IMG/VR virus record: IMGVR_UViG_3300047479_000009
Coordinates: 1-37,848 of that record
Source: a virus
Taxonomy: Duplodnaviria > Caudoviricetes
Reading direction: 5' to 3' (one strand)
Length of the DNA: 37,848 bases
The stretch's first letter is position 1, and the number at the start of each line of letters is the position of its first letter. Positions 12,770 through 25,444 of the stretch are shown here, piece by piece. Position numbers and translations under genes: made by a program. The notes under the pieces are model-generated. The model worked only from the letters and a program-made list of their open reading frames with translations. It was not told where the DNA came from and searched no databases.

Positions 12770-14050
12770 CTAAGCGATAAACCGGCCTGTTCTGTACTTG
12801 ATAGGCTTAACCGAGCCGTTACTGTTGCTCAGTGAGTCGGCCACGATACAGGCGTATCTAAAAGCGTCAGCACCGTGCGAGTATTCGTCGTGAAGTGCAG
12901 AGCCAGCCTCGTTAGTCTGCTTGTTGATGTGGCGGCGGTATCGTTTAAGACACTCGATTAACCGGCCTGCCTTGTCTTGGTTGAAGTAAATCCGGCTGAA
13001 TGTCATACGCGCAGCCCGAATACCCTCTTCTATGCCCATGTTGGGTGTCTGCTCAACCGTACAGCCCAGAGCTTCCATGATTTCCTGTGCGCTCTTGCCG
13101 GTCTTGAAGTCTTTAGCAAACCCGTCATGGGGTAGATAGTGAGTGCCCCAATTCAGCGGCATATTCTTCAACTGCCTAACGTAATCGTCCAGTGTCCTGT
13201 GCGAGTCCTCGATGTAGTCCACGATGCGTAGCTCTGAGGCTTGACGTTGAACCAGGACGATAGACATAGAATCATTCCAGCCCAAATCCCAAACGGCGTG
13301 AGTTTTCAGCAATGGATCAGCAGGTACAGCCCTAATCCGTCCTTCACGCTCTGCCGCTGCCACCTCTTCAAAGTAGATAGCACCCGTAACCGCTGGCAAG
13401 CACTCGCCTTCCCATACATTGCGGTACTCTTCTGGCTTCATAGTAGCTTCAGCGTGAATGCGCTCGTCATTCAGGATTGCGGGAAAGTGCGGGTTTTCCG
13501 TCCAATTCATTAGCACCGACACACAATCTGGCGGTGGACTTATGACAAACATTTGATGCGTCGGGTCAGTCTCTAGCTCAGGGTTGTATGTCACCCAAAT
13601 CTCGCTGCCTTCCTTACGAATGGTAGGAATCAGTGTTTTCCAAGACTTTGCGCTGATTGCTTGTGCCTCTTCGCACCAAACAATATCAACCCCCTCAAAC
13701 GACTTTAGACCAGTCGCTGTAATGTCTGACAAACCGCTGAAGAAGATTTGCGAACCGTTTATTCCGCGAATCTCAGTCTGCAACACCTCGAAGAAGTCCT
13801 GTAGCCCAAGCATTGCTATCTGGTCGGCCAAAAGCTGGTGGACGGACTGCTGAATATTCTTCTGGATTTCCCGAGTACACAGAGCGCGGGTTTGCTTTGT
13901 CAGGCAAGCGTACAGCAGCGACCTAGCGAATCCCCAAGACTTTCCAGACCCTCGACCACCTCTAGCTACCTTGTACCGTGCTGGCTTTTGAAGGAAAGAG
14001 AGCGCCTTTGGAATCCTGAAGTCTGCGTTAATCGTAGTTGACTGTTGCAT
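12770..14050 (-). CDS. terL: Terminase large subunit, PBSX family
   Basis: Walker A GGRGSGKS, Walker B VWCEEA, IPTIRK, WDLG nuclease motif, SHGADAFRY. Confidence 0.95.
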   Translation of the reverse strand: MQQSTTINADFRIPKALSFLQKPARYKVARGGRGSGKSWGFARSLLYACLTKQTRALCTREIQKNIQQSVHQLLADQIAMLGLQDFFEVLQTEIRGINGSQIFFSGLSDITATGLKSFEGVDIVWCEEAQAISAKSWKTLIPTIRKEGSEIWVTYNPELETDPTHQMFVISPPPDCVSVLMNWTENPHFPAILNDERIHAEATMKPEEYRNVWEGECLPAVTGAIYFEEVAAAEREGRIRAVPADPLLKTHAVWDLGWNDSMSIVLVQRQASELRIVDYIEDSHRTLDDYVRQLKNMPLNWGTHYLPHDGFAKDFKTGKSAQEIMEALGCTVEQTPNMGIEEGIRAARMTFSRIYFNQDKAGRLIECLKRYRRHINKQTNEAGSALHDEYSHGADAFRYACIVADSLSNSNGSVKPIKYRTGRFIA

Positions 14051-14399
14051 TTACGGTAACGCTCATGGCGACTTTGGTAGGCTCGTTGAAACCGTGCATG
14101 GCATTCAATTCCTTGATTGCAGACACTTTTTCGTTTGCCCTAGTCTCTTCCCCTTTGGCTATCTCTGCGAGTGCCTGAACGCTGTCTAGGCGCGTCCAAA
14201 TGGCTGCTATTGCGATAGCTTCCCGAAGCTCTTTCACCCTCATGGAAATATCATGGCCGGACATGAGCAAAGACGCCTCGTTATACACAACTGCGTCACT
14301 GCTGTTATCGCACTCGTAAGCAGTACGGTAGGCGTCTGCCTGAGTCATTCCGCTGGCTACTGCCTGTGCGAATGCTTCTTGTTTGCCAGTTAGGGCCAT
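14028..14399 (-). CDS. terS: Terminase small subunit
   Basis: LT.KQE.FA......T..DAYR.AY N-terminal HTH, immediately upstream of terL. Confidence 0.85.
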   Translation of the reverse strand: MALTGKQEAFAQAVASGMTQADAYRTAYECDNSSDAVVYNEASLLMSGHDISMRVKELREAIAIAAIWTRLDSVQALAEIAKGEETRANEKVSAIKELNAMHGFNEPTKVAMSVTVNATVNYD

Positions 14400-14487
14400 G
14401 GTGTCATTTCCTTTACCGAGTTCACCTTAAAGCGATTGTTCGGATAAATGCTCCCCTTTACCGCAGGGGAAAGCGGTTTTGGCTACT

Positions 14488-14559
14488 TCAGCAGCCCTTC
14501 TTACCCTTACCAGGAGGGCACTTGTCTACAGGTTTCTTGACGGGTTTCTTAGTAGCCAT
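14488..14559 (-). CDS. 23-aa lysine-rich peptide (MATKKPVKKPVDKCPPGKGKKGC)
   Basis: ATG after an AAGGT RBS. First ORF of the late operon. Confidence 0.5.
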   Translation of the reverse strand: MATKKPVKKPVDKCPPGKGKKGC

Positions 14560-14571
14560 GATTTACCTTGT

Positions 14572-14596
14572 AAAAAAGCCAGCCCCGAAGGGCCGG
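14572..14596 (-). terminator. Intrinsic terminator about 60 nt after a putative late promoter
   Basis: CCGGCCC-TTCG-GGGCTGG-CTTTTTT on the minus strand. Confidence 0.8.
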
Positions 14597-14636
14597 TAAG
14601 TAGTCGGATCAGGACTACAGGGGGAAGGAGAATGAG

Positions 14637-14939
14637 CTAATTGTCGGAATTGGTAATGAGTGCGTGGAACACTGACTTAACGCCTTTTAGACAATCGGGG
14701 AAAGTGTCAATGCGTCCAGGCAGTAGATAGATTGCCCGTCCCTGTGCGTCACGGTGCTTTGTACAGATTGCGCCTATGTATGCCAAGTTTGCTATGGCTC
14801 CAGCCACCTGTCCTTTGTTTAACTTGGTTTCAGTGCGTATATCAAGCAAGGTAACGTGCCCGTTTTCTATTGCTTCTAAGACTAGCCTCATTGACGAGAA
14901 TGGGCGCTTGAATTGAAGTGGCTGGCCTTTTTTCAGCAA
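14637..14939 (-). CDS. Winged-HTH protein, candidate late transcription regulator
   Basis: VLEAIENG..T..DI...T.L....V...IANL...G.I wHTH pattern. TTG start after AAGGAG. Last gene of the early operon, in the position lambda Q occupies. Confidence 0.55.
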   Translation of the reverse strand: MLKKGQPLQFKRPFSSMRLVLEAIENGHVTLLDIRTETKLNKGQVAGAIANLAYIGAICTKHRDAQGRAIYLLPGRIDTFPDCLKGVKSVFHALITNSDN

Positions 14940-15487
14940 GATAGCTCCTTTAGCTTGCGACGGTACGTTTCCTTGATTTCTATCAACTCTTCCCGAGTCC
15001 ACTTGTGAGGCGTGTTGTCAGCTTCCAATGCTTCGACTCGCTCCAGGCCAATCCTTGCTATCAGTCCAATGCGGTAGTCAACAGCGCGGCCTGCTCCGTA
15101 CCTGTTGCAGACTTTTCTCTGAGCATGGCAGTTGTCCTCGTTAAATCTAAGGTGACTCGCGCTACCAGTGCTGCGGTAGTGTCCAGCGTCGTAACCGCCA
15201 CCAACTGAGGATTCCCCGAGAGGCTGTCCACAGCAGATACACGGTCGAAGCTGATCCCGTAGACGTATGAAAGCGTTGAATGCAATTTGAGCGTCCTTGA
15301 TTAAGTCGGGGATTCGCTTGAGCGCAGCCTTCCTAGCTTTGTCGCGCTCAAGTTCTTCCTTTTTTTGAGCACGTACTAAGCGACTTGCACAAATTTGGGA
15401 GCACACAGCCTGTAGAGGCCTAACAGGAATGAAGTCGCAATCACACTGCCTGCAAGTCTTTTTCTTGCTTGAACTTATTTCCATCAA
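14933..15487 (-). CDS. ninG: NinG/Rap-family recombination endonuclease
   Basis: AQ.AFN.FIRLRD...PCICCG, YDAGHYRS.G...HLRF.E.NCHAQ and YR.GLI.RIG motifs. Confidence 0.9.
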   Translation of the reverse strand: MMEISSSKKKTCRQCDCDFIPVRPLQAVCSQICASRLVRAQKKEELERDKARKAALKRIPDLIKDAQIAFNAFIRLRDQLRPCICCGQPLGESSVGGGYDAGHYRSTGSASHLRFNEDNCHAQRKVCNRYGAGRAVDYRIGLIARIGLERVEALEADNTPHKWTREELIEIKETYRRKLKELSC

Positions 15488-16059
15488 ATTTCTCCTGTGC
15501 GCTTTAGGCGTGAATACAGCGTTGCATACTTGATGCCGCTTTTTCTAGCGACATTTGCAATCGTTACCTTCTCTCCGTCACGGATAAGAAATCTGTTGGT
15601 GCATGTATTATTTTGTTGCTCTCTATGTGTTGCCCACCTGCAATTTGAAGGCTCATAGTTACCGTTGCAGTCAATTCTTTCAAGTGTCATTCCGTCTGGA
15701 CGCGGCCCCATGTCTTCGTAAAACGACACGAATCCTTTTAGCCACTTTCCGCAAACCTGAATGCCTCTTCCTCCATATCGGTGGTAAGCCTCATGCGTTG
15801 GCAAGTAGCACCTAGAAATCATTGATGAATAACTTGAATGTCCTGGCGTCTTAGTGCCGATTCCATGAGTGCCCTTAGTTGTGCATGTCTTGCTTTTTCC
15901 ACAGATCAAATGCGTTTGATATATGGTTTTCTCCTTGCCGCACACGCACCTGCACTTCCACATGGCTTTATTGCACTTTGAATTTGGCGCTCTTTCTATA
16001 ACTGTCCAATCTCCAAAAACTTGACCTTGAAAAAAGTGTTTTTTTCTTGGATCAGTCAT
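15484..16059 (-). CDS. HNH-like homing endonuclease between ninB and ninG
   Basis: WKCRCVCG, YGGRGI.VC..W, DMG.RP...TLERID.NGNYEP.NCRWAT..EQ.NN. Confidence 0.85.
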   Translation of the reverse strand: MTDPRKKHFFQGQVFGDWTVIERAPNSKCNKAMWKCRCVCGKEKTIYQTHLICGKSKTCTTKGTHGIGTKTPGHSSYSSMISRCYLPTHEAYHRYGGRGIQVCGKWLKGFVSFYEDMGPRPDGMTLERIDCNGNYEPSNCRWATHREQQNNTCTNRFLIRDGEKVTIANVARKSGIKYATLYSRLKRTGEI

Positions 16060-16456
16060 GGAATACCACCCCGCGCTCTGCACCGAATGCCATTGCCAAT
16101 TCCAGCAACTCCGACATTTCCTCTTTAGTCATTTTGCTGGTGGACAAACCCAAGACTACGAAACCACCGTCAACCCCAGGCACTGTCCTTTGCTTGCGTA
16201 GCGAGGCAGTTAACATTGTTTTCCAATCGTCTGCGGTTAACTTTTCACCGTACCAACTGACTTGATTAGCTATGTCCGTCAGTGCTGCCCACATGAGCCG
16301 GTTTTGCTCATTGCTGCGCTTTTCCTTGCGTACCGTTACCTGTAGGCGGTGTCCGGCAGTGAGATAAGGCTTGATAGTTGCCCACAATTCTGAAAGTGCC
16401 TTGTGTCCCTGTTGAGCGTTGTATAGCGTGTAAGTGCTGCTCACTTGCAACTCCAA
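16052..16456 (-). CDS. ninB: NinB/Orf family recombination protein
   Basis: KRS.EQN..MWA.L.DIA.QV.W.G..L...DWK and G.STSKM...EMSEL.E...AFGAE.GV motifs. Confidence 0.9.
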   Translation of the reverse strand: MELQVSSTYTLYNAQQGHKALSELWATIKPYLTAGHRLQVTVRKEKRSNEQNRLMWAALTDIANQVSWYGEKLTADDWKTMLTASLRKQRTVPGVDGGFVVLGLSTSKMTKEEMSELLELAMAFGAERGVVFHD

Positions 16457-16638
16457 ACCCTAGGGCCAATACTTAGCAACCAAGCGTCAAAACCGGCTTT
16501 ATTTGATTCTTGTAGTAACCAACTTTCATACGCTGCTTTAGGTGTCTTTCCAAAACCAACACTGTCGTATTTACCTATTGGGTGACACTTCCATGTTCGC
16601 TCAGGCGCATTCCTAATCAATGAGATATTCGGCTTCAT
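16441..16638 (-). CDS. Hypothetical protein
   Basis: 65 aa with a G.G.TP..AY..W motif. Operon packing. Confidence 0.6.
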   Translation of the reverse strand: MKPNISLIRNAPERTWKCHPIGKYDSVGFGKTPKAAYESWLLQESNKAGFDAWLLSIGPRVWSCK

Positions 16639-16835
16639 TCTGTGTCCTCAATCTCACGCATAAGCGCCCTGCAACGTCCTTCAAATCCCTTGCCGAACAC
16701 CCGCGCCTCTAAGTGCTGCAACCTATCTGCAAGCCACATTGCTGCCTGTGATTTGCCGCTCTTGGCTACTTGGTGGTGGTAGTACATTCTTTGCATACGG
16801 GCTTCCCCTTTTTCTAGTTGCGCTCTGTCACTCAA
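16635..16835 (-). CDS. Hypothetical protein
   Basis: About 66 aa. Operon packing with overlaps on both sides. Confidence 0.6.
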   Translation of the reverse strand: MSDRAQLEKGEARMQRMYYHHQVAKSGKSQAAMWLADRLQHLEARVFGKGFEGRCRALMREIEDTE

Positions 16836-16945
16836 TCCAAGTCACCAGTTAGACGCAGGGCCATGTCAATCACCTGTCTGGGAAAGTGACTACCAGTACC
16901 GCGACGGATTGAATCAAGGATTGCTTTTGCTTCAAAGTAAGTCAT
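16832..16945 (-). CDS. Small hypothetical protein (37 aa, not in ORF track)
   Basis: MTYFEAKAILDSIRRG...ALRLTGDLD*. ATGA overlap upstream; fills the operon gap. Confidence 0.65.
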   Translation of the reverse strand: MTYFEAKAILDSIRRGTGSHFPRQVIDMALRLTGDLD

Positions 16946-17124
16946 GTCATGTCACTCGGTAGCGCAAGAAAGATTTGCTTTTCATTCAATGCCTCTGCCC
17001 TTGCTATCAGGTAGCGAAGAAAAGGCATTGCTTCTTTGTTGATATGGAATGAAAACGTAGGGCTTTCGTCCTTTAGAGCAGGCTTAAACCAATCGACGTT
17101 GATAGCAATAGTTAAGTGCTTCAT
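16942..17124 (-). CDS. Hypothetical protein
   Basis: 60 aa with ATGA overlaps. Confidence 0.55.
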   Translation of the reverse strand: MKHLTIAINVDWFKPALKDESPTFSFHINKEAMPFLRYLIARAEALNEKQIFLALPSDMT

Positions 17125-17456
17125 ACGCGCCCCGTAATCTTTGAGAAGTGCTCTCGAAGGTTTGCTGGTATCGGTGCAGCCTTCTTGCTGTCCTCTGCAA
17201 TCTTCTTCAGCGCAGGGTCAATAGCAGTCTTGGACTCGGAGCGAAGTTGTCCAGGAAACACACCGCGCCAGCCCTTCATGATTGACTGCTCAAGACTGTT
17301 ATTCGGGTCGTAGCCTTCTTGGTGGAACTTCATAAGCTCCTTTAGGACTAGCTTCTTTGCGAACTCGGTAACTGGTGCGCGAGAACCCATCTTCTTACGC
17401 ATGGCCCAAAACTCTTCCCAAAGCTCGTTATCAATATAGGCTGGTAGACAATTCAA
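17121..17456 (-). CDS. Stand-alone C-terminal domain resembling lambdoid replication initiators
   Basis: LP..I..ELW..F..MRKK.....T......L..L......G.D....LEQSI..GW.G.F pattern. No N-terminal HTH or iterons seen. Confidence 0.55.
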   Translation of the reverse strand: MNCLPAYIDNELWEEFWAMRKKMGSRAPVTEFAKKLVLKELMKFHQEGYDPNNSLEQSIMKGWRGVFPGQLRSESKTAIDPALKKIAEDSKKAAPIPANLREHFSKITGRV

Positions 17457-17650
17457 GATTCATCCTCCTGAATCTCCATTGAGAACTTGTTTTCAGCCAG
17501 AAGTCGTTGCAACTCCAGCATTACCAACTCGACTTGATCGCCATTCAAAGCCACAAGTTGATCGTCGTCGGGCCACCCAACTTGACGTATTGATACGCCA
17601 CCTGCGTCGTTCAAGTAAACGTGCGTTTCTTGCAGTGCCATTAGCTTCAT
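17453..17650 (-). CDS. Hypothetical protein
   Basis: 65 aa with a strong AGGAGG RBS. Confidence 0.65.
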   Translation of the reverse strand: MKLMALQETHVYLNDAGGVSIRQVGWPDDDQLVALNGDQVELVMLELQRLLAENKFSMEIQEDES

Positions 17651-17669
17651 TCCCCCTCCTATTTATTTG

Positions 17670-17867
17670 TTATTGATACGCTGCTGGTGCGCGTCCAAAA
17701 TATCGTTTTAGCTTTCCTTCCTGCTTCTTCAGGATCGTCCAGCCCTGCTCCTTCAAGTCACTCAATCTCCGGTGAGGGCTGACACTAGGAAGGACCGCTG
17801 CAATGTCCACAGAGGTACAGCCAGACTTGCGAAGAAGTAGCTTTTTCAGCTTGTCGTGTTGCGTCAT
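17670..17867 (-). CDS. Small winged-HTH DNA-binding protein
   Basis: T..DI........RRLSDLK..GW.I wHTH pattern. Follows cro. Confidence 0.7.
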   Translation of the reverse strand: MTQHDKLKKLLLRKSGCTSVDIAAVLPSVSPHRRLSDLKEQGWTILKKQEGKLKRYFGRAPAAYQ

Positions 17868-17914
17868 GTGTTTATCCCCATGCTGTTGAAAATTTCATAT
17901 TGACTTTGTGAACG

Positions 17915-17930
17915 CTTAGACCAGACTAAG
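17915..17930. promoter_or_regulatory. Repressor operator CTTAG-ACCAGA-CTAAG downstream of cro
   Basis: Perfect match to the CTTAG-N6-CTAAG palindrome found at 18136 and 19810. Confidence 0.6.
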
Positions 17931-18126
17931 GTTCTTTCCTTATGTTTTCAGGTAACATGTCTTCAAGCTTTACGCGCCCTTTTGTAAGTTTCTTAAGAGC
18001 CAACATGTGCTCTTTAGGTACTCCGTTAGTGCGCCATTGCGGAACTGCACCCGATGACAAACCGAAATGCTCAGTGACAAGCTTTACTCGGCCTCGTTTT
18101 TCATCCAACCATTCATTTAGTTTCAT
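17926..18126 (-). CDS. cro: Cro-like HTH regulator
   Basis: MKLNEWL...RGR...V..HFGLS.GAV.QW..NGVP. Divergent from the repressor. Start revised to 18126. Confidence 0.8.
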   Translation of the reverse strand: MKLNEWLDEKRGRVKLVTEHFGLSSGAVPQWRTNGVPKEHMLALKKLTKGRVKLEDMLPENIRKEP

Positions 18127-18193
18127 ACTAAGTATCTTAGCTGAAGCTAAGTTGACTGGCAACAATAGCTAAGAAACCCTACGCTGGACTAAG
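18117..18193. promoter_or_regulatory. OR-like region: pR (minus strand TTGCCA-17-TAAGAT, 18162..18134) and four operator-like sites
   Basis: Perfect CTTAGCTGAAGCTAAG at 18136-18151. CTAAG half-sites at 18128, 18147, 18169 and 18189, spaced 19-22 nt apart. Confidence 0.75.
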
Positions 18194-18197
18194 GTAT

Positions 18198-18719
18198 ATG
18201 ACTGACGAAAGAAGGAAGAAACGACTAAAGACGCTAATAGACGAGCGGTTTAGTGGTAGCCAGCGGCTTCTAACCGAGGCTATGGGATGGTCGAGTGGGA
18301 GAAGCTCTCAGCTTCTTAGCGATAAGTACCCGTTTGGCGAAGATGCAGCCAAAAAGATCATTGAAAAGCTAGAGCTAGACGAGGATTACTTTGATAGAGA
18401 CGCAGGAGAAGCAAAGCCAGCCGCACCTGTGCTTGAAAAGCAAGACATGGCTATGGCCCTGTTTAACGCTTACACGGCGCTAGTCAAAGTTCTAAGCAAG
18501 AACGGTGCGCTACATGTTGCAGACCTATCCAACGAGATAGGAAACACACTAGACTTTAGACGGTCGAATGGGATTGAGTCAGCAGATCAGAACCACATGC
18601 TGGAGCTTGTCTACAAATCGGTTCTGCAAATTGAAAAGTTTGAATCTGACCTTGCAGCTCTAAAAGCTGACTTTGATAAGAAGCTTCAAGACTTGCACAA
18701 GCCTCCTCGTACTGAGTAG
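18198..18719 (+). CDS. cI: CI-like repressor (N-terminal HTH, no S24 peptidase domain)
   Basis: R...L..LI.ERF.GSQ..L...MG.S....SQLL......GE..A.KI..KL.L...YFD. The C-terminal half is helical, with no recognisable Ser/Lys dyad motifs. Confidence 0.8.
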   Translation: MTDERRKKRLKTLIDERFSGSQRLLTEAMGWSSGRSSQLLSDKYPFGEDAAKKIIEKLELDEDYFDRDAGEAKPAAPVLEKQDMAMALFNAYTALVKVLSKNGALHVADLSNEIGNTLDFRRSNGIESADQNHMLELVYKSVLQIEKFESDLAALKADFDKKLQDLHKPPRTE

Positions 18720-19206: not shown

Positions 19207-19293
19207 AACTCCGCTGTTGATCAATGAGGTGTGAATCCCTCCGATCTGCGACCATAGTTTCGTAGTGTCAGCACCAATCATTTAGCACTCCAT

Positions 19294-19320
19294 GCCCTCC
19301 TAGCGAGGGCTTTTTGTTTT
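19294..19320 (+). terminator. Intrinsic terminator of the cI operon
   Basis: GCCCTC-CTAGC-GAGGGC-TTTTTGTTTT. Confidence 0.85.
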
Positions 19321-19727
19321 CCAACGAGTCCCCTACTGTCTTTACCCTGTATCTACTACTTAAGAACTTTCCCTTGGTGGATTGTTTAGGGTGCAGCAAG
19401 CTAACCCTACCTAAAGAGTACTTACTGCGTCTTTCCCTCGGAGCCATTGCCTGAGAGCTTGGAACTGGACAAGTCAACCTGCCAGAACATCCGAATCCTT
19501 AAGCGGGGATTGACCCACTCCTACCAGGCGATTCAGTCACGCTAAAACCTGTCTATCCCCTTGGCCCTGCTTGGGATTAGCAGCTTGTACGCAGTCGTCC
19601 AATACAAGCGCTGAAAGCAAAAAAACCTCTAGTTCCTGCTTTCATAGGCTCGCACCCTATTGCCATTGAAGGCAGAAAGCAGAGGCTAGAGGCTTCTGCA
19701 CGTCTACTGGTGCGAGCATTAGACGTT
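19321..19727 (-). ncRNA. Putative structured non-coding RNA (about 108-nt terminated form, about 400-nt read-through form)
   Basis: No convincing ORF. Many hairpins, complementary loops CTCGCAC/GTGCGAG, a U7 tract, and an upstream TAGACT-18-TAAAAT promoter. Confidence 0.55.
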
Positions 19728-19731
19728 AAGG

Positions 19732-19827
19732 ATTTTACTTGAGTTCTTAGCTACAAGTCTAATAACCTTACTTTTAGCTCAACTTCTCTTAATTCTGCTT
19801 GCATTGTTTCTTAGCTACAACTAAGAT
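19732..19827. promoter_or_regulatory. OL-like region: pL (plus strand TTGCAT-17-TAAGAT, 19799-19827), a divergent minus promoter (19761..19732), and operators at 19746 and 19810
   Basis: CTTAGCTACAACTAAG at 19810-19825 and CTTAGCTACAAGTCTA at 19746-19761. Same -10/operator overlap as at pR. Confidence 0.75.
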
Positions 19828-19862: not shown

Positions 19863-20228
19863 ATGTACGAACCGACAACCGCCTGGGACAGAGCACCGAC
19901 TGACAAAGAGCTTGAAAACTTCTACGGCAAGCCAGCTAAGACTGACGTGCGTGACAGCTACTTTGAAGTGCTGACAGAAAGCATTCGCAAGGTGCCTGCC
20001 GCCAATCTGGCACTTGTGTACTACAGCAGTTCAAAGAATGGCCTTGCTCAGTATTCCGTGCCTGAAGTAGTCACTGACTACGGCACTGATCCCAAGCCTC
20101 TGGAAGCCCTTCTGGCGGTGCTTGAGAAGTCCGACTGCCCACTGGTGCAAAAGTACCGCGAAGCCCTGGCAGAGCATTTTGCAGATCGCAACGCTGACGA
20201 AGTTGAATATTTCAAGAGCGAGGACTGA
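19863..20228 (+). CDS. Hypothetical early protein (first gene of the pL operon)
   Basis: 121 aa with an AGGGGTG RBS. Confidence 0.75.
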   Translation: MYEPTTAWDRAPTDKELENFYGKPAKTDVRDSYFEVLTESIRKVPAANLALVYYSSSKNGLAQYSVPEVVTDYGTDPKPLEALLAVLEKSDCPLVQKYREALAEHFADRNADEVEYFKSED

Positions 20229-22412: not shown

Positions 22413-22749
22413 AGAAAATGGCAAGCCAGGACGGGTGTGCAACGTGTGTAAAGAGTGGCACCCGTATGACAACTTGGTTAGCGCTAAGGGAAATAACGCG
22501 CACAGCACTGGCTACCGTCCACTGTGCAAGCCTTGCCGCAAGCTGAAACAGCACCAATACCGTGCTGAAAACCTTGGATTCAAGTCTCCGCTACCAGTGA
22601 AGGTGCCGAACAAGTGGGCACAAGAGCCGCTACCAAATCAGTCGCCAGGGCAACTGATTAACAAAATGGTAGGTGTGTATGTACCGCCGCCAAGCTACGT
22701 CAGGAATGACGGTTTAAAGCACATTCCTTCAAGGGGTTTTCCATGCTAG
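22399..22749 (+). CDS. Zinc-finger-containing hypothetical protein
   Basis: CNVCK...CKPC motifs. Confidence 0.65.
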   Translation: MSTSKENGKPGRVCNVCKEWHPYDNLVSAKGNNAHSTGYRPLCKPCRKLKQHQYRAENLGFKSPLPVKVPNKWAQEPLPNQSPGQLINKMVGVYVPPPSYVRNDGLKHIPSRGFPC

Positions 22750-23779: not shown

Positions 23780-24423
23780 CAGACGCAGAAACACTGGCAA
23801 CCCAAATCGACCAAGGCGACTTCTCAATGAGTGACCTGCAACGTGCCGCAGAACTACTCCGTCAGCAGGCGGCTGATATAGCAAACCTGCACACTGTGAT
23901 GATGGCCGCTGCGGTTGAGATTAGTGAGCATTGGGAGGCGCACTGTGACAGCGAGGGATATGGACCTGCCAATCTGGTTCGTCGCTTGGAGAACGGGTTT
24001 CCAGAGCAGTACGGCTATGACGCGCAGACAATAGTGCGGATGCAGAAACAGCTTGATGAACAAGCGGCTGAGATAGAGCGACTGACAAAACGAACCGAAG
24101 GAAATACAAATGGACGATGCAACTACCTTCGATTTAATTTGCATGGCGATATGGTTATGGGTGGTGACGCCAATAGTGTTGTGGGCTGTATCGAAGTTCA
24201 TTCCCTGATTGAAAAACTACAAGCTGAAATAGACAACATCAAGCTAGTGGAGTTTCCGCGCAGACTCGGCAAAGTGACTAAGCATGTCATTGCAGAGCGC
24301 GACAAACTCCGCACCTTGATCTCCAAACTCCACACGGCAAAGGGCCGCTACCACACACAACTTGCGGTGTGTGATTTGTTCGATGCCGTTGGACTAAAAA
24401 ATGAAAGGCCAGCGAATGATTGA
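23776..24423 (+). CDS. Modular coiled-coil protein (Ea22/Ead-like region)
   Basis: 215 aa with AAELLRQQAA and QAAEIERL linkers. Ends GLKNERPAND. Confidence 0.7.
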   Translation: MTDAETLATQIDQGDFSMSDLQRAAELLRQQAADIANLHTVMMAAAVEISEHWEAHCDSEGYGPANLVRRLENGFPEQYGYDAQTIVRMQKQLDEQAAEIERLTKRTEGNTNGRCNYLRFNLHGDMVMGGDANSVVGCIEVHSLIEKLQAEIDNIKLVEFPRRLGKVTKHVIAERDKLRTLISKLHTAKGRYHTQLAVCDLFDAVGLKNERPAND

Positions 24424-25444
24424 ACAAGCAAAACCGTGTGAACACTGGCTCAAAGGATTGATTAGCGGCGCATGGAAACAGCAGTGCGTGTACTGTGAGA
24501 ATGACCAACTCCGCACAGAGGTGGAGCAGTACAAAGCTGATTGGAAAGCCTGCACTGCAATGAACCGCGAGTTGCTGGCAGAAGTTGAGCGGATGCGTGT
24601 CGATGCTGAACGACTGAACTTTATCCAAGCCAACCCGAAATTAAGACTATGTAACTACAAACGTCGTTGGGCGCTTGTTGGTTTAACCAACTACGAGTAC
24701 GACACGTTTAAGACCGTGCGTGAAGCCATAGATGCTGCCATTGGCGAAACAGTCGGAATCAATGGGCTAACCACCACAGAGACTGACGCAACTGCATCAG
24801 TAATGGGGTTGGTTAAGCAGGAGCAAGCAGAGCCGGTATGGAAAGATATAGACGAATGCGATGGCTATGAGGTTTCAAGTCACGGTGATGTTAGAAACAA
24901 AAAGACTGGAAAGATATTAGCCAAGAATCTAATGGGCGCTGGTTACGTTAAAGCAGATATGTGGCTTAACGGGAAGCGTAAACAAACGTCAGTCCATCGC
25001 CTAGTTGCTACAGCCTTCCTAGGCCCGTCTGAGGGAAGAGAAGTAAACCATAAAAACGGCGACAAACAAGATAACCGTGTAGAAAACCTTGAGTGGTGCA
25101 GTAGGAGCGACAACGTAAATCACAACTACTACAAGCTAGGAGCGTTAATAAAGCCAATAAAGATTACCAACATTGAAACCGGTGAAGTGCTGCACTTCCC
25201 ATCATGCAATGAGGCAACTAGGCATGGATTCAAATCAGCAAGAATCCATGAGTGTCTTTCTGGTAAACGTGACTCGTATGGTGGTTTTATGTTTGAGTAT
25301 GACACCGCACCCCAAGGCCAAACCGCCCTGCTAAAGCAGGCTCTGAAGGCGTTGCAGGGCACAGGAACGCCCGGTGGATGCAAAGCCTATCTCCGTGAAT
25401 TAGCCGCAATCGAAGCTATCAAACAGCACTTGGGGGAAGCATGA
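24416..25444 (+). CDS. Modular protein containing a NUMOD4-HNH endonuclease domain
   Basis: WKDI....GYEVSS.G.VRN (NUMOD4) and VHRLVA.AFL......VNHKNGDKQDNRVENLEW (HNH). Start revised to 24416. Confidence 0.85.
   Translation: MIEQAKPCEHWLKGLISGAWKQQCVYCENDQLRTEVEQYKADWKACTAMNRELLAEVERMRVDAERLNFIQANPKLRLCNYKRRWALVGLTNYEYDTFKTVREAIDAAIGETVGINGLTTTETDATASVMGLVKQEQAEPVWKDIDECDGYEVSSHGDVRNKKTGKILAKNLMGAGYVKADMWLNGKRKQTSVHRLVATAFLGPSEGREVNHKNGDKQDNRVENLEWCSRSDNVNHNYYKLGALIKPIKITNIETGEVLHFPSCNEATRHGFKSARIHECLSGKRDSYGGFMFEYDTAPQGQTALLKQALKALQGTGTPGGCKAYLRELAAIEAIKQHLGEA

Follow-up and report, generated by a model that had tools for sequence, protein, structure and literature searches.

What is the short non-coding element that lies on the minus strand of IMG/VR record IMGVR_UViG_3300047479_000009, between the end of the cI-like operon and a divergent pL-like promoter, and what might it control? 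The window, as we call the whole stretch of 37,848 bases that was analyzed, is a complete virus record with terminal repeats from freshwater sequencing runs, and its gene content is that of a lambdoid-type temperate phage. None of the runs that contain it is listed as RNA, which carries no information about expression. The original prediction described the element as a repressor-controlled RNA of 108 nucleotides (nt) with complementary loops, a terminator and an alternative fold. We find the same design in about 50 sequences, and we suggest that it probably acts as a same-strand antisense attenuator and forms the 5' end of a mobile non-coding phage cassette that brings its own promoter.

Matching variable loops in an RNA family

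A typical member carries a promoter, a leader hairpin (P0), a three-way junction built of a stalk (P1), a small hairpin (P2) and a 3' hairpin (P3), and usually a U-run (Table 1 gives the window's copy). In the window, every sequence listed in the original prediction was found in its place on the minus strand, the length of 108 nt (19726-19619) is borne out, and the helices described are those of the minimum-energy fold (z = -3.95), with equally stable folds in 1/200 shuffles. The loop complementarity is present too, but it spans 9 nt rather than the 7 proposed and includes the closing pair of P3.

Contigs of other freshwater runs hold the same core with different but still complementary loops. 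Pattern scans that left the loops free returned 4, 6, 10 and 51 viral loci, 9 genome loci and 56 metagenome loci (below, L plus a number denotes a locus and G plus a number a record). Among the 43 distinct pattern matches tabulated, 21 have a loop match of 9-14 nt, and 22 have one of at most 6 nt and lie mostly inside coding sequence. Twenty of the former 21 loci, together with L089, gave the 21 training rows, and model searches yielded 47 distinct forward matches, of which 45 were analyzed after two divergent second matches had been dropped. Six additional members came later, from whole-record searches or from beside matches to the read-through region behind the element. Two matches are in genomes, on Thiobacillaceae and Janthinobacterium contigs; the model matches 2/151 genomes of Janthinobacterium's order (one of them the seed) and 3/16 near-complete Erf-related phage records.

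Judged by sequence comparison, which carries the family, its strand, the junction, the P0:P3 match, the antiterminator arm, the promoter position and the downstream region, this RNA family is real. Rfam scans found no family for the switch in the window or in member loci, cultured phages and plasmids searched by blastn contain no real match to the window or to the cassettes of four relatives, and a search with the exact P3 hairpin pattern gave zero matches. Four supplementary files of PMC10690425, a part of that source, hold no match to the family, which may still be listed in its alignments.

The match between the P0 loop and P3 is the principal evidence. It averages 10.5 nt, reaches at least 9 nt in 40/45 members (19/24 outside the training set) and extends to 14 nt in relatives, whereas pairs of members with different loops average 4.4 nt and never (0%) reach 9 nt; the loops fall into 24 types. 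In seven members that were found independently of any sequence pattern of the switch RNA (L058, L222, L223, L224, L240, L242 and L243), the match spans 8-13 nt. In the training alignment 92% of cells are paired (99.7% in the stalk), with two-sided changes at 7/7 loop-loop pairs and 12/19 stalk pairs, covariation that is partly circular because the rows were chosen by a match of at least 9 nt. Homolog alignment, a check put forward with the original prediction, bears it out: the P0 and P3 loops co-vary across the family. The commonest P3 loop has 7 nt, and the P0 match runs into both strands of the P3 stem, which argues for a strand-invading duplex rather than a simple 7-bp kiss.

The folds contain 148 G-U pairs, and the sense fold is the more stable in 40/45 members; together these fix the strand and indicate RNA. 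A promoter at a fixed distance scores at least 8/12 in 27/43 members against 4/248 control windows, and on the opposite strand behind the U-run such a score occurs in 0/45 members against 14/169 control windows. The promoter named for the window, a 9/12 match, is on its own at chance level (3 found vs 4.9 expected in the region), but its position is kept in the family. As for the operator said to overlap it, 11 consecutive bases are common with the operator at 19810-19825, but the second half is shifted by one base, and the site has more than three mismatches from the 16-mer operator consensus. Repressor control as a general feature did not hold, since the element has its own promoter in many genomic contexts and the operator-like site is degenerate and local; as far as the compared sequences indicate, such control is local to the window phage.

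Two predicted folds and the comparison with known systems

The arm behind the U-run can pair with the 3' strand of the stalk as a predicted antiterminator. Over 42 unique pairs this duplex has -11.0 kcal/mol for the members' own arms, against -9.5 +/- 0.3 for permuted and -7.1 for tail-shuffled ones, and the own value was unmatched in 5000 permutations (0/5000 as low), a count that is not a probability because the members are related. Folding prediction yields two mutually exclusive folds, which differ by 1.6-4.4 kcal/mol in the four members that were compared; with P0:P3 forced, the U-run is buried in a hairpin, and in L188 this fold reaches -52.7 against -50.6 for the terminator fold. In transcript prefixes P0:P3 is predicted to dominate in 45/45 members up to 12 nt past P3 and in 14 at 20 nt, and stalk probability is below 0.5 with 20 nt of read-through in 8/45. 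What stands of the alternative fold foreseen for the window is a co-varying antiterminator arm, but in the window's copy the alternative fold is the less stable of the two, by 4.4 kcal/mol. Covariation of P0:P3 and of the post-U-run antiterminator likewise supports the predicted RNA switch as a two-state choice between termination and read-through, though not as a simple 7-bp kiss, and supports its P4 CI- and P1 C4-like logic.

We infer that on a new transcript the leader loop would pair with P3, favoring the antiterminator fold and read-through, and that this state would be kinetically trapped. Accumulated short RNA would mask P0 in trans and force termination at the U-run, its own P0 having been removed or bypassed; positive feedback would be part of this scheme. 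The 24 loop types may then be immunity or incompatibility types.

Several results weigh against this mechanism. By 24 nt past P3 the terminator fold wins in 45/45 members, so read-through would need the kinetic trapping; in the window the stalk probability is 0.93-0.98, and forcing P0:P3 gives a fold of -43.6, whereas the terminator fold reaches -48.0. Some members have a weak antiterminator (L198, -3.4; L099, -5.0), the U-run is short (2-4 U) in 3/7 of the pattern-independent members, and the dropped second matches (a second copy in L209, and L165 at 148-270) have loop matches of 4-5 nt only. To these come the partial circularity of the training alignment and the relatedness of the members. 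A processing signal by which the short RNA could lose its own P0 was not found, and two-strand folding of folded P0 with folded junction, over the 24 types, gave about 0 kcal/mol for cognate and non-cognate partners alike, in a program that cannot represent kissing.

The element appears to work like CI and C4 while being filed as neither. With C4 (RF01695, P1/P7) the family shares a long stalk, a small hairpin on the 5' side and a 3' hairpin whose specificity loop is variable, joined in a three-stem junction, as well as a same-strand target in an upstream hairpin (the a1b1 motif); architecture and target are described in parts of PMC5320573, and alignment rows are given in part of the PMC2864571 supplement. 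The C4 (RF01695) and c4-2 models found no match in the window at E<=10, nor in 20 loci at the gathering score, 20 at E<=1 and 12 at E<=0.5. The b' junction loop of C4 is not in the family, in nearly all members of which P3 joins the stalk without an unpaired stretch, and neither is its GGW RNase P site (part of PMC5320573): the stalk starts with GAAGCC or AGGCC and ends in the U-run. Whereas C4 acts by blocking a ribosome-binding site, the output predicted for the family is termination, with a co-varying antiterminator behind the U-run.

The IsrK locus of Gifsy-1 is an Rfam family related to P4 CI. P4 CI RNA brings about premature termination through pairing with same-strand seqA and seqC, upstream of the replication genes (parts of PMC4825925 and PMC3632133). 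The family would share with it a same-strand small RNA that acts on its own read-through transcript, and the upstream same-strand target is present. A downstream target resembling seqC was not found within 400 nt downstream in 45 members, where the longest match averages 6.1 nt (controls: 5.8 nt upstream, 5.8 nt on the opposite strand). No conserved kil- or icd-like peptide was seen in the window/L105 pair, the only one checked; the read-through product is non-coding.

The MRB plasmids of Vibrionaceae have an RNA replicon whose incompatibility is set by loops (part of PMC3035462). An ORF-free stretch (ORF, open reading frame) of ~400-500 bp, a small terminated RNA whose loops vary and a second, longer RNA are common to these plasmids, to ColE1 (RNA I / RNA II) and to the family. 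In ColE1 and MRB, however, the opposite strand encodes the small RNA, and the long RNA runs on past its promoter, whereas in the family both are on one strand and the conserved part lies behind the terminator. Inspection by eye had suggested a likeness to ColE1, but over 44 members it did not exceed chance (mean z 0.11 for sense, 0.15 for antisense) and was discarded. Betaproteobacteria-1 (RF02932) coincides with the read-through region of one cassette class, but its Rfam model excludes the switch itself. No case of a Rep-less RNA origin with such control geometry in phages came up in the literature searched.

Read-through region, replication initiators and rival explanations

The element occupies varied sites (terminase-portal gap, nin region, immunity-early gap), and behind it most members have 200-400 nt that lack long ORFs; which gene comes next varies, and in some cases it is convergent. 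Downstream homology in the largest class extends over about 260 nt and ends at CTATG, and a short helix co-varies in the read-through region (21/31 rows comparable). The class with Betaproteobacteria-1 (RF02932) as its read-through region comprises L094, L120, L170, L212 and L151/L217; the window, whose region is of another class, has no RF02932 match. As a whole the region does not exceed shuffles in stability (mean z -0.16, 45 members), and its consensus fold, from a poor alignment, has only 3 pairs. An internal segment repeating the tail did not stand out in class A (own 6.26 vs permuted 6.49; 27 rows, with 4/31 omitted) or in the three members of class B tested, where p was 0.1-0.5. For the window and for L105 p was about 0.015, but the places concerned are not homologous. 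A 69-amino-acid (aa) ORF at 19268-19477, which has no family, was rejected as the output because the homologous L105 stretch stops after five codons. An L042 match to the read-through region was set aside as chance, lying inside coding sequence.

Cassettes stand directly before short O-like replication genes in L079, L225, L229, L239 and L151, and the window's own short O-like gene may be linked to its switch cassette as well. A search with the short protein alone gave 10 loci, 5 of them with the switch or the read-through region; those five include all 3 records that are at least 85% complete, and the other five are fragments 12-32% complete. Among 18 whole records the cassette occurs in 3/15 with a long initiator and in both with a short initiator only (G217 has the short initiator only and the read-through region only; G161 has neither). 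Adding G218 and G219 gives 4/4 vs 3/15, with p = 0.009 to be read in the light that kin are not independent and that G218 and G219 were left out of the whole-record scan for long initiators; the Erf-selected set alone gives 1/1 vs 3/15 (p = 0.25). The profile for the G159 variant was built from G159 itself and L079, with G192 left out. The association is also seen where the cassette is not adjacent (the window, L100, L236, L238 and L240), and cassettes co-occur with long, full-length initiators too. We take the enrichment with short initiators as a hint of an RNA-primed origin, not proof. For the short O-like protein, fold searches brought up nothing clear: Foldseek returned no match at E<=0.001, and the best Z was 4.8 (3.7 for a DnaD domain). 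The surroundings of its gene (window 14000-17900) have no recognised helicase, loader or primase gene.

Some loci depart from the common plan. Variant switches with a long P2 arm, missed by model R1, occur in L079 (minus strand, upstream of 2883) and L229 (about 780-960), both preceding short O-like genes. In L079 about 10 nt of the linker that follows the leader hairpin match the P2 arm, and the leader loop may be the partner of the P3 loop; the two contacts together may amount to a two-part pairing of the C4 kind. G198 (L105, L225), L209 and L165 have two elements each. At L267 961-1410 (G191), a second cassette in one phage has a class C read-through region that sits behind a different three-way junction with a U-run and a leader match of only 5 nt. 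Extra structured RNAs lie between switch and read-through region in L236 (3600-3750), L239 (5460-5630), L100, L166 and L110; those of L236 and L239 are inside a long flanking stem, and that of L236 looks tRNA-like. The L239 insert matches, over 52 nt (89%), a non-coding stretch that precedes the tRNA cluster in Xanthomonas phage RiverRider; this is the only blastn match obtained there, and it concerns the insert, not the switch cassette. The RiverRider tRNA leader (L284 1339-1388) scores 25 bits for a type III hammerhead, a weak match that stays under the gathering score. L232 is an RF02932 copy in a bacterial genome with no recognisable family switch upstream, and several GC-rich hairpins follow it. 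Window positions 19294-19362 are common to relatives in two runs, which diverge at 19359-19362; the relatives' ends resemble a Betaproteobacteria-1-class cassette, suggesting exchange of cassette classes at one site.

How much of this could be explained otherwise? If the element were a purely cis attenuator, decided by transcription speed, pausing or a protein, loop variation would be compensated neutral drift. All the covariation found is equally expected in cis, and the null trans cofolding and the missing processing site fit as well; we nevertheless think this rather unlikely, because the 24 loop types change wholesale on an otherwise kept scaffold, as in specificity determinants such as the variable a' loop of C4 (part of PMC5320573), and the alignment shows neither a conserved ligand-type core nor a leader peptide. 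A stand-alone stable small RNA, with P0 and P3 loops that kiss as a fixed contact or dimerise and with a plain terminator, strikes us as distinctly improbable. Its own promoter and mobile position would suit it, as would the 7-nt P3 loop and the predominance of the terminator fold at equilibrium in most members, but the match into both P3 stem strands (up to 14 nt) is unusable by a kiss, the post-U-run arm co-varies with the stalk, and a homologous ~260-nt region lies behind most members. Chance hairpins plus a terminator in an intergenic region can be all but dismissed: the promoter match alone is at chance level, but a family of ~50 sequences with compensatory changes is not what chance would leave.

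The remaining alternative accepts the switch as proposed and denies it an origin, the output being only expression of the next gene or, in the window, antisense transcription into the cI-like operon. Many cassettes do end directly before a same-strand gene, the conserved CTATG end in L079 contains the likely start codon of the short initiator, and neither the ordinary stability of the read-through region nor the cassettes with full-length initiators speak for more. Yet the downstream genes are unrelated (portal, Erf, nin-region) or convergent (window, L089, L157, L158) while ~260 nt stay homologous with a co-varying helix, and the short-initiator association holds where the cassette is not adjacent; we regard this alternative as possible but doubtful. 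The attenuator we favor might instead have an output that primes or marks a replication origin, a tentative idea that we rank ahead of a mere leader for the next gene.

At its most speculative, and with more doubt than confidence on our side, temperate phages of Betaproteobacteria might carry a mobile protein-free origin whose ~260-nt primer RNA is made under the control of a self-reinforcing same-strand antisense attenuator, with 24 or more passwords. If so, copy control and superinfection immunity would rest on RNA only, a phage could discard the DNA-binding half of its O-like initiator, and the orphan Betaproteobacteria-1 motif would be explained. Were the read-through RNA the primer, this would be a Rep-less RNA origin with a control geometry unlike that of ColE1 or MRB plasmids. 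Placing an orphan Rfam motif behind a regulator makes the motif's function testable. A compact same-strand antisense switch of about 110 nt, protein-free and with many natural orthogonal alleles, could also supply a set of RNA-controlled terminators.

Setting of the element in the window

Table 1. Features of the element and its surroundings, in window coordinates
Feature	Position	Strand	Basis
Short O-like replication protein, 111 aa	17121..17456	-	phrog_678 positions 219-282 of 346, C-terminal part only
cro-like gene	17926-18165		
cI-like gene	18198-18719		
Terminator-like hairpin closing the convergent cI-like operon	19294..19320	+	
Non-coding conserved read-through region, ~270 nt, homologous to that of L105	19340..19611	-	E 7e-10
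UGCUUUCA, 3' arm of predicted antiterminator	19619-19612	-	folding, duplex test
U7 run directly behind stalk, predicted intrinsic terminator	19619..19625	-	sequence
Three-way junction	19696-19626	-	folding
Stalk 3' strand, also 5' arm of predicted antiterminator	19626..19643	-	folding, duplex test
P3 hairpin; complement of P0 target at 19656-19648	19644..19660	-	folding, alignment, match analysis
P2 small hairpin	19661..19674	-	folding, alignment
P1 stalk 5' strand, with internal loop	19675..19696	-	folding, alignment
P0 leader hairpin (hairpin 1), displays target loop	19700..19726	-	folding, alignment
9-nt target within P0 loop, variable specificity element	19709..19717	-	match analysis
Sigma-70-type promoter TAGACT-18-TAAAAT (-35 19761-19756, -10 19737-19732)	19732..19761	-	positional conservation in family
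Degenerate operator-like site over -35, phage-specific	19747..19763		sequence
Divergent pL-like promoter TTGCAT-17-TAAGAT, overlapped by palindromic operator 19810-19825	19799..19827	+	sequence

Further genes of the window include Erf, integrase, NinG, terminase and portal. The neighbouring protein at 19863-20228 has no relatives among the viral contigs searched. A GC-skew minimum at 19-22 kb coincides with the divergence of transcription and was set aside as not diagnostic. HNH-type genes lie at 15484-16083 (recognised by eye) and 24401-25444 (by Pfam). Perfect palindromic operators occur at 18136-18151 and 19810-19825, and further operator-like palindromes at 17915-17930, just behind the cro-like gene, and at 22473-22488, inside the early operon.
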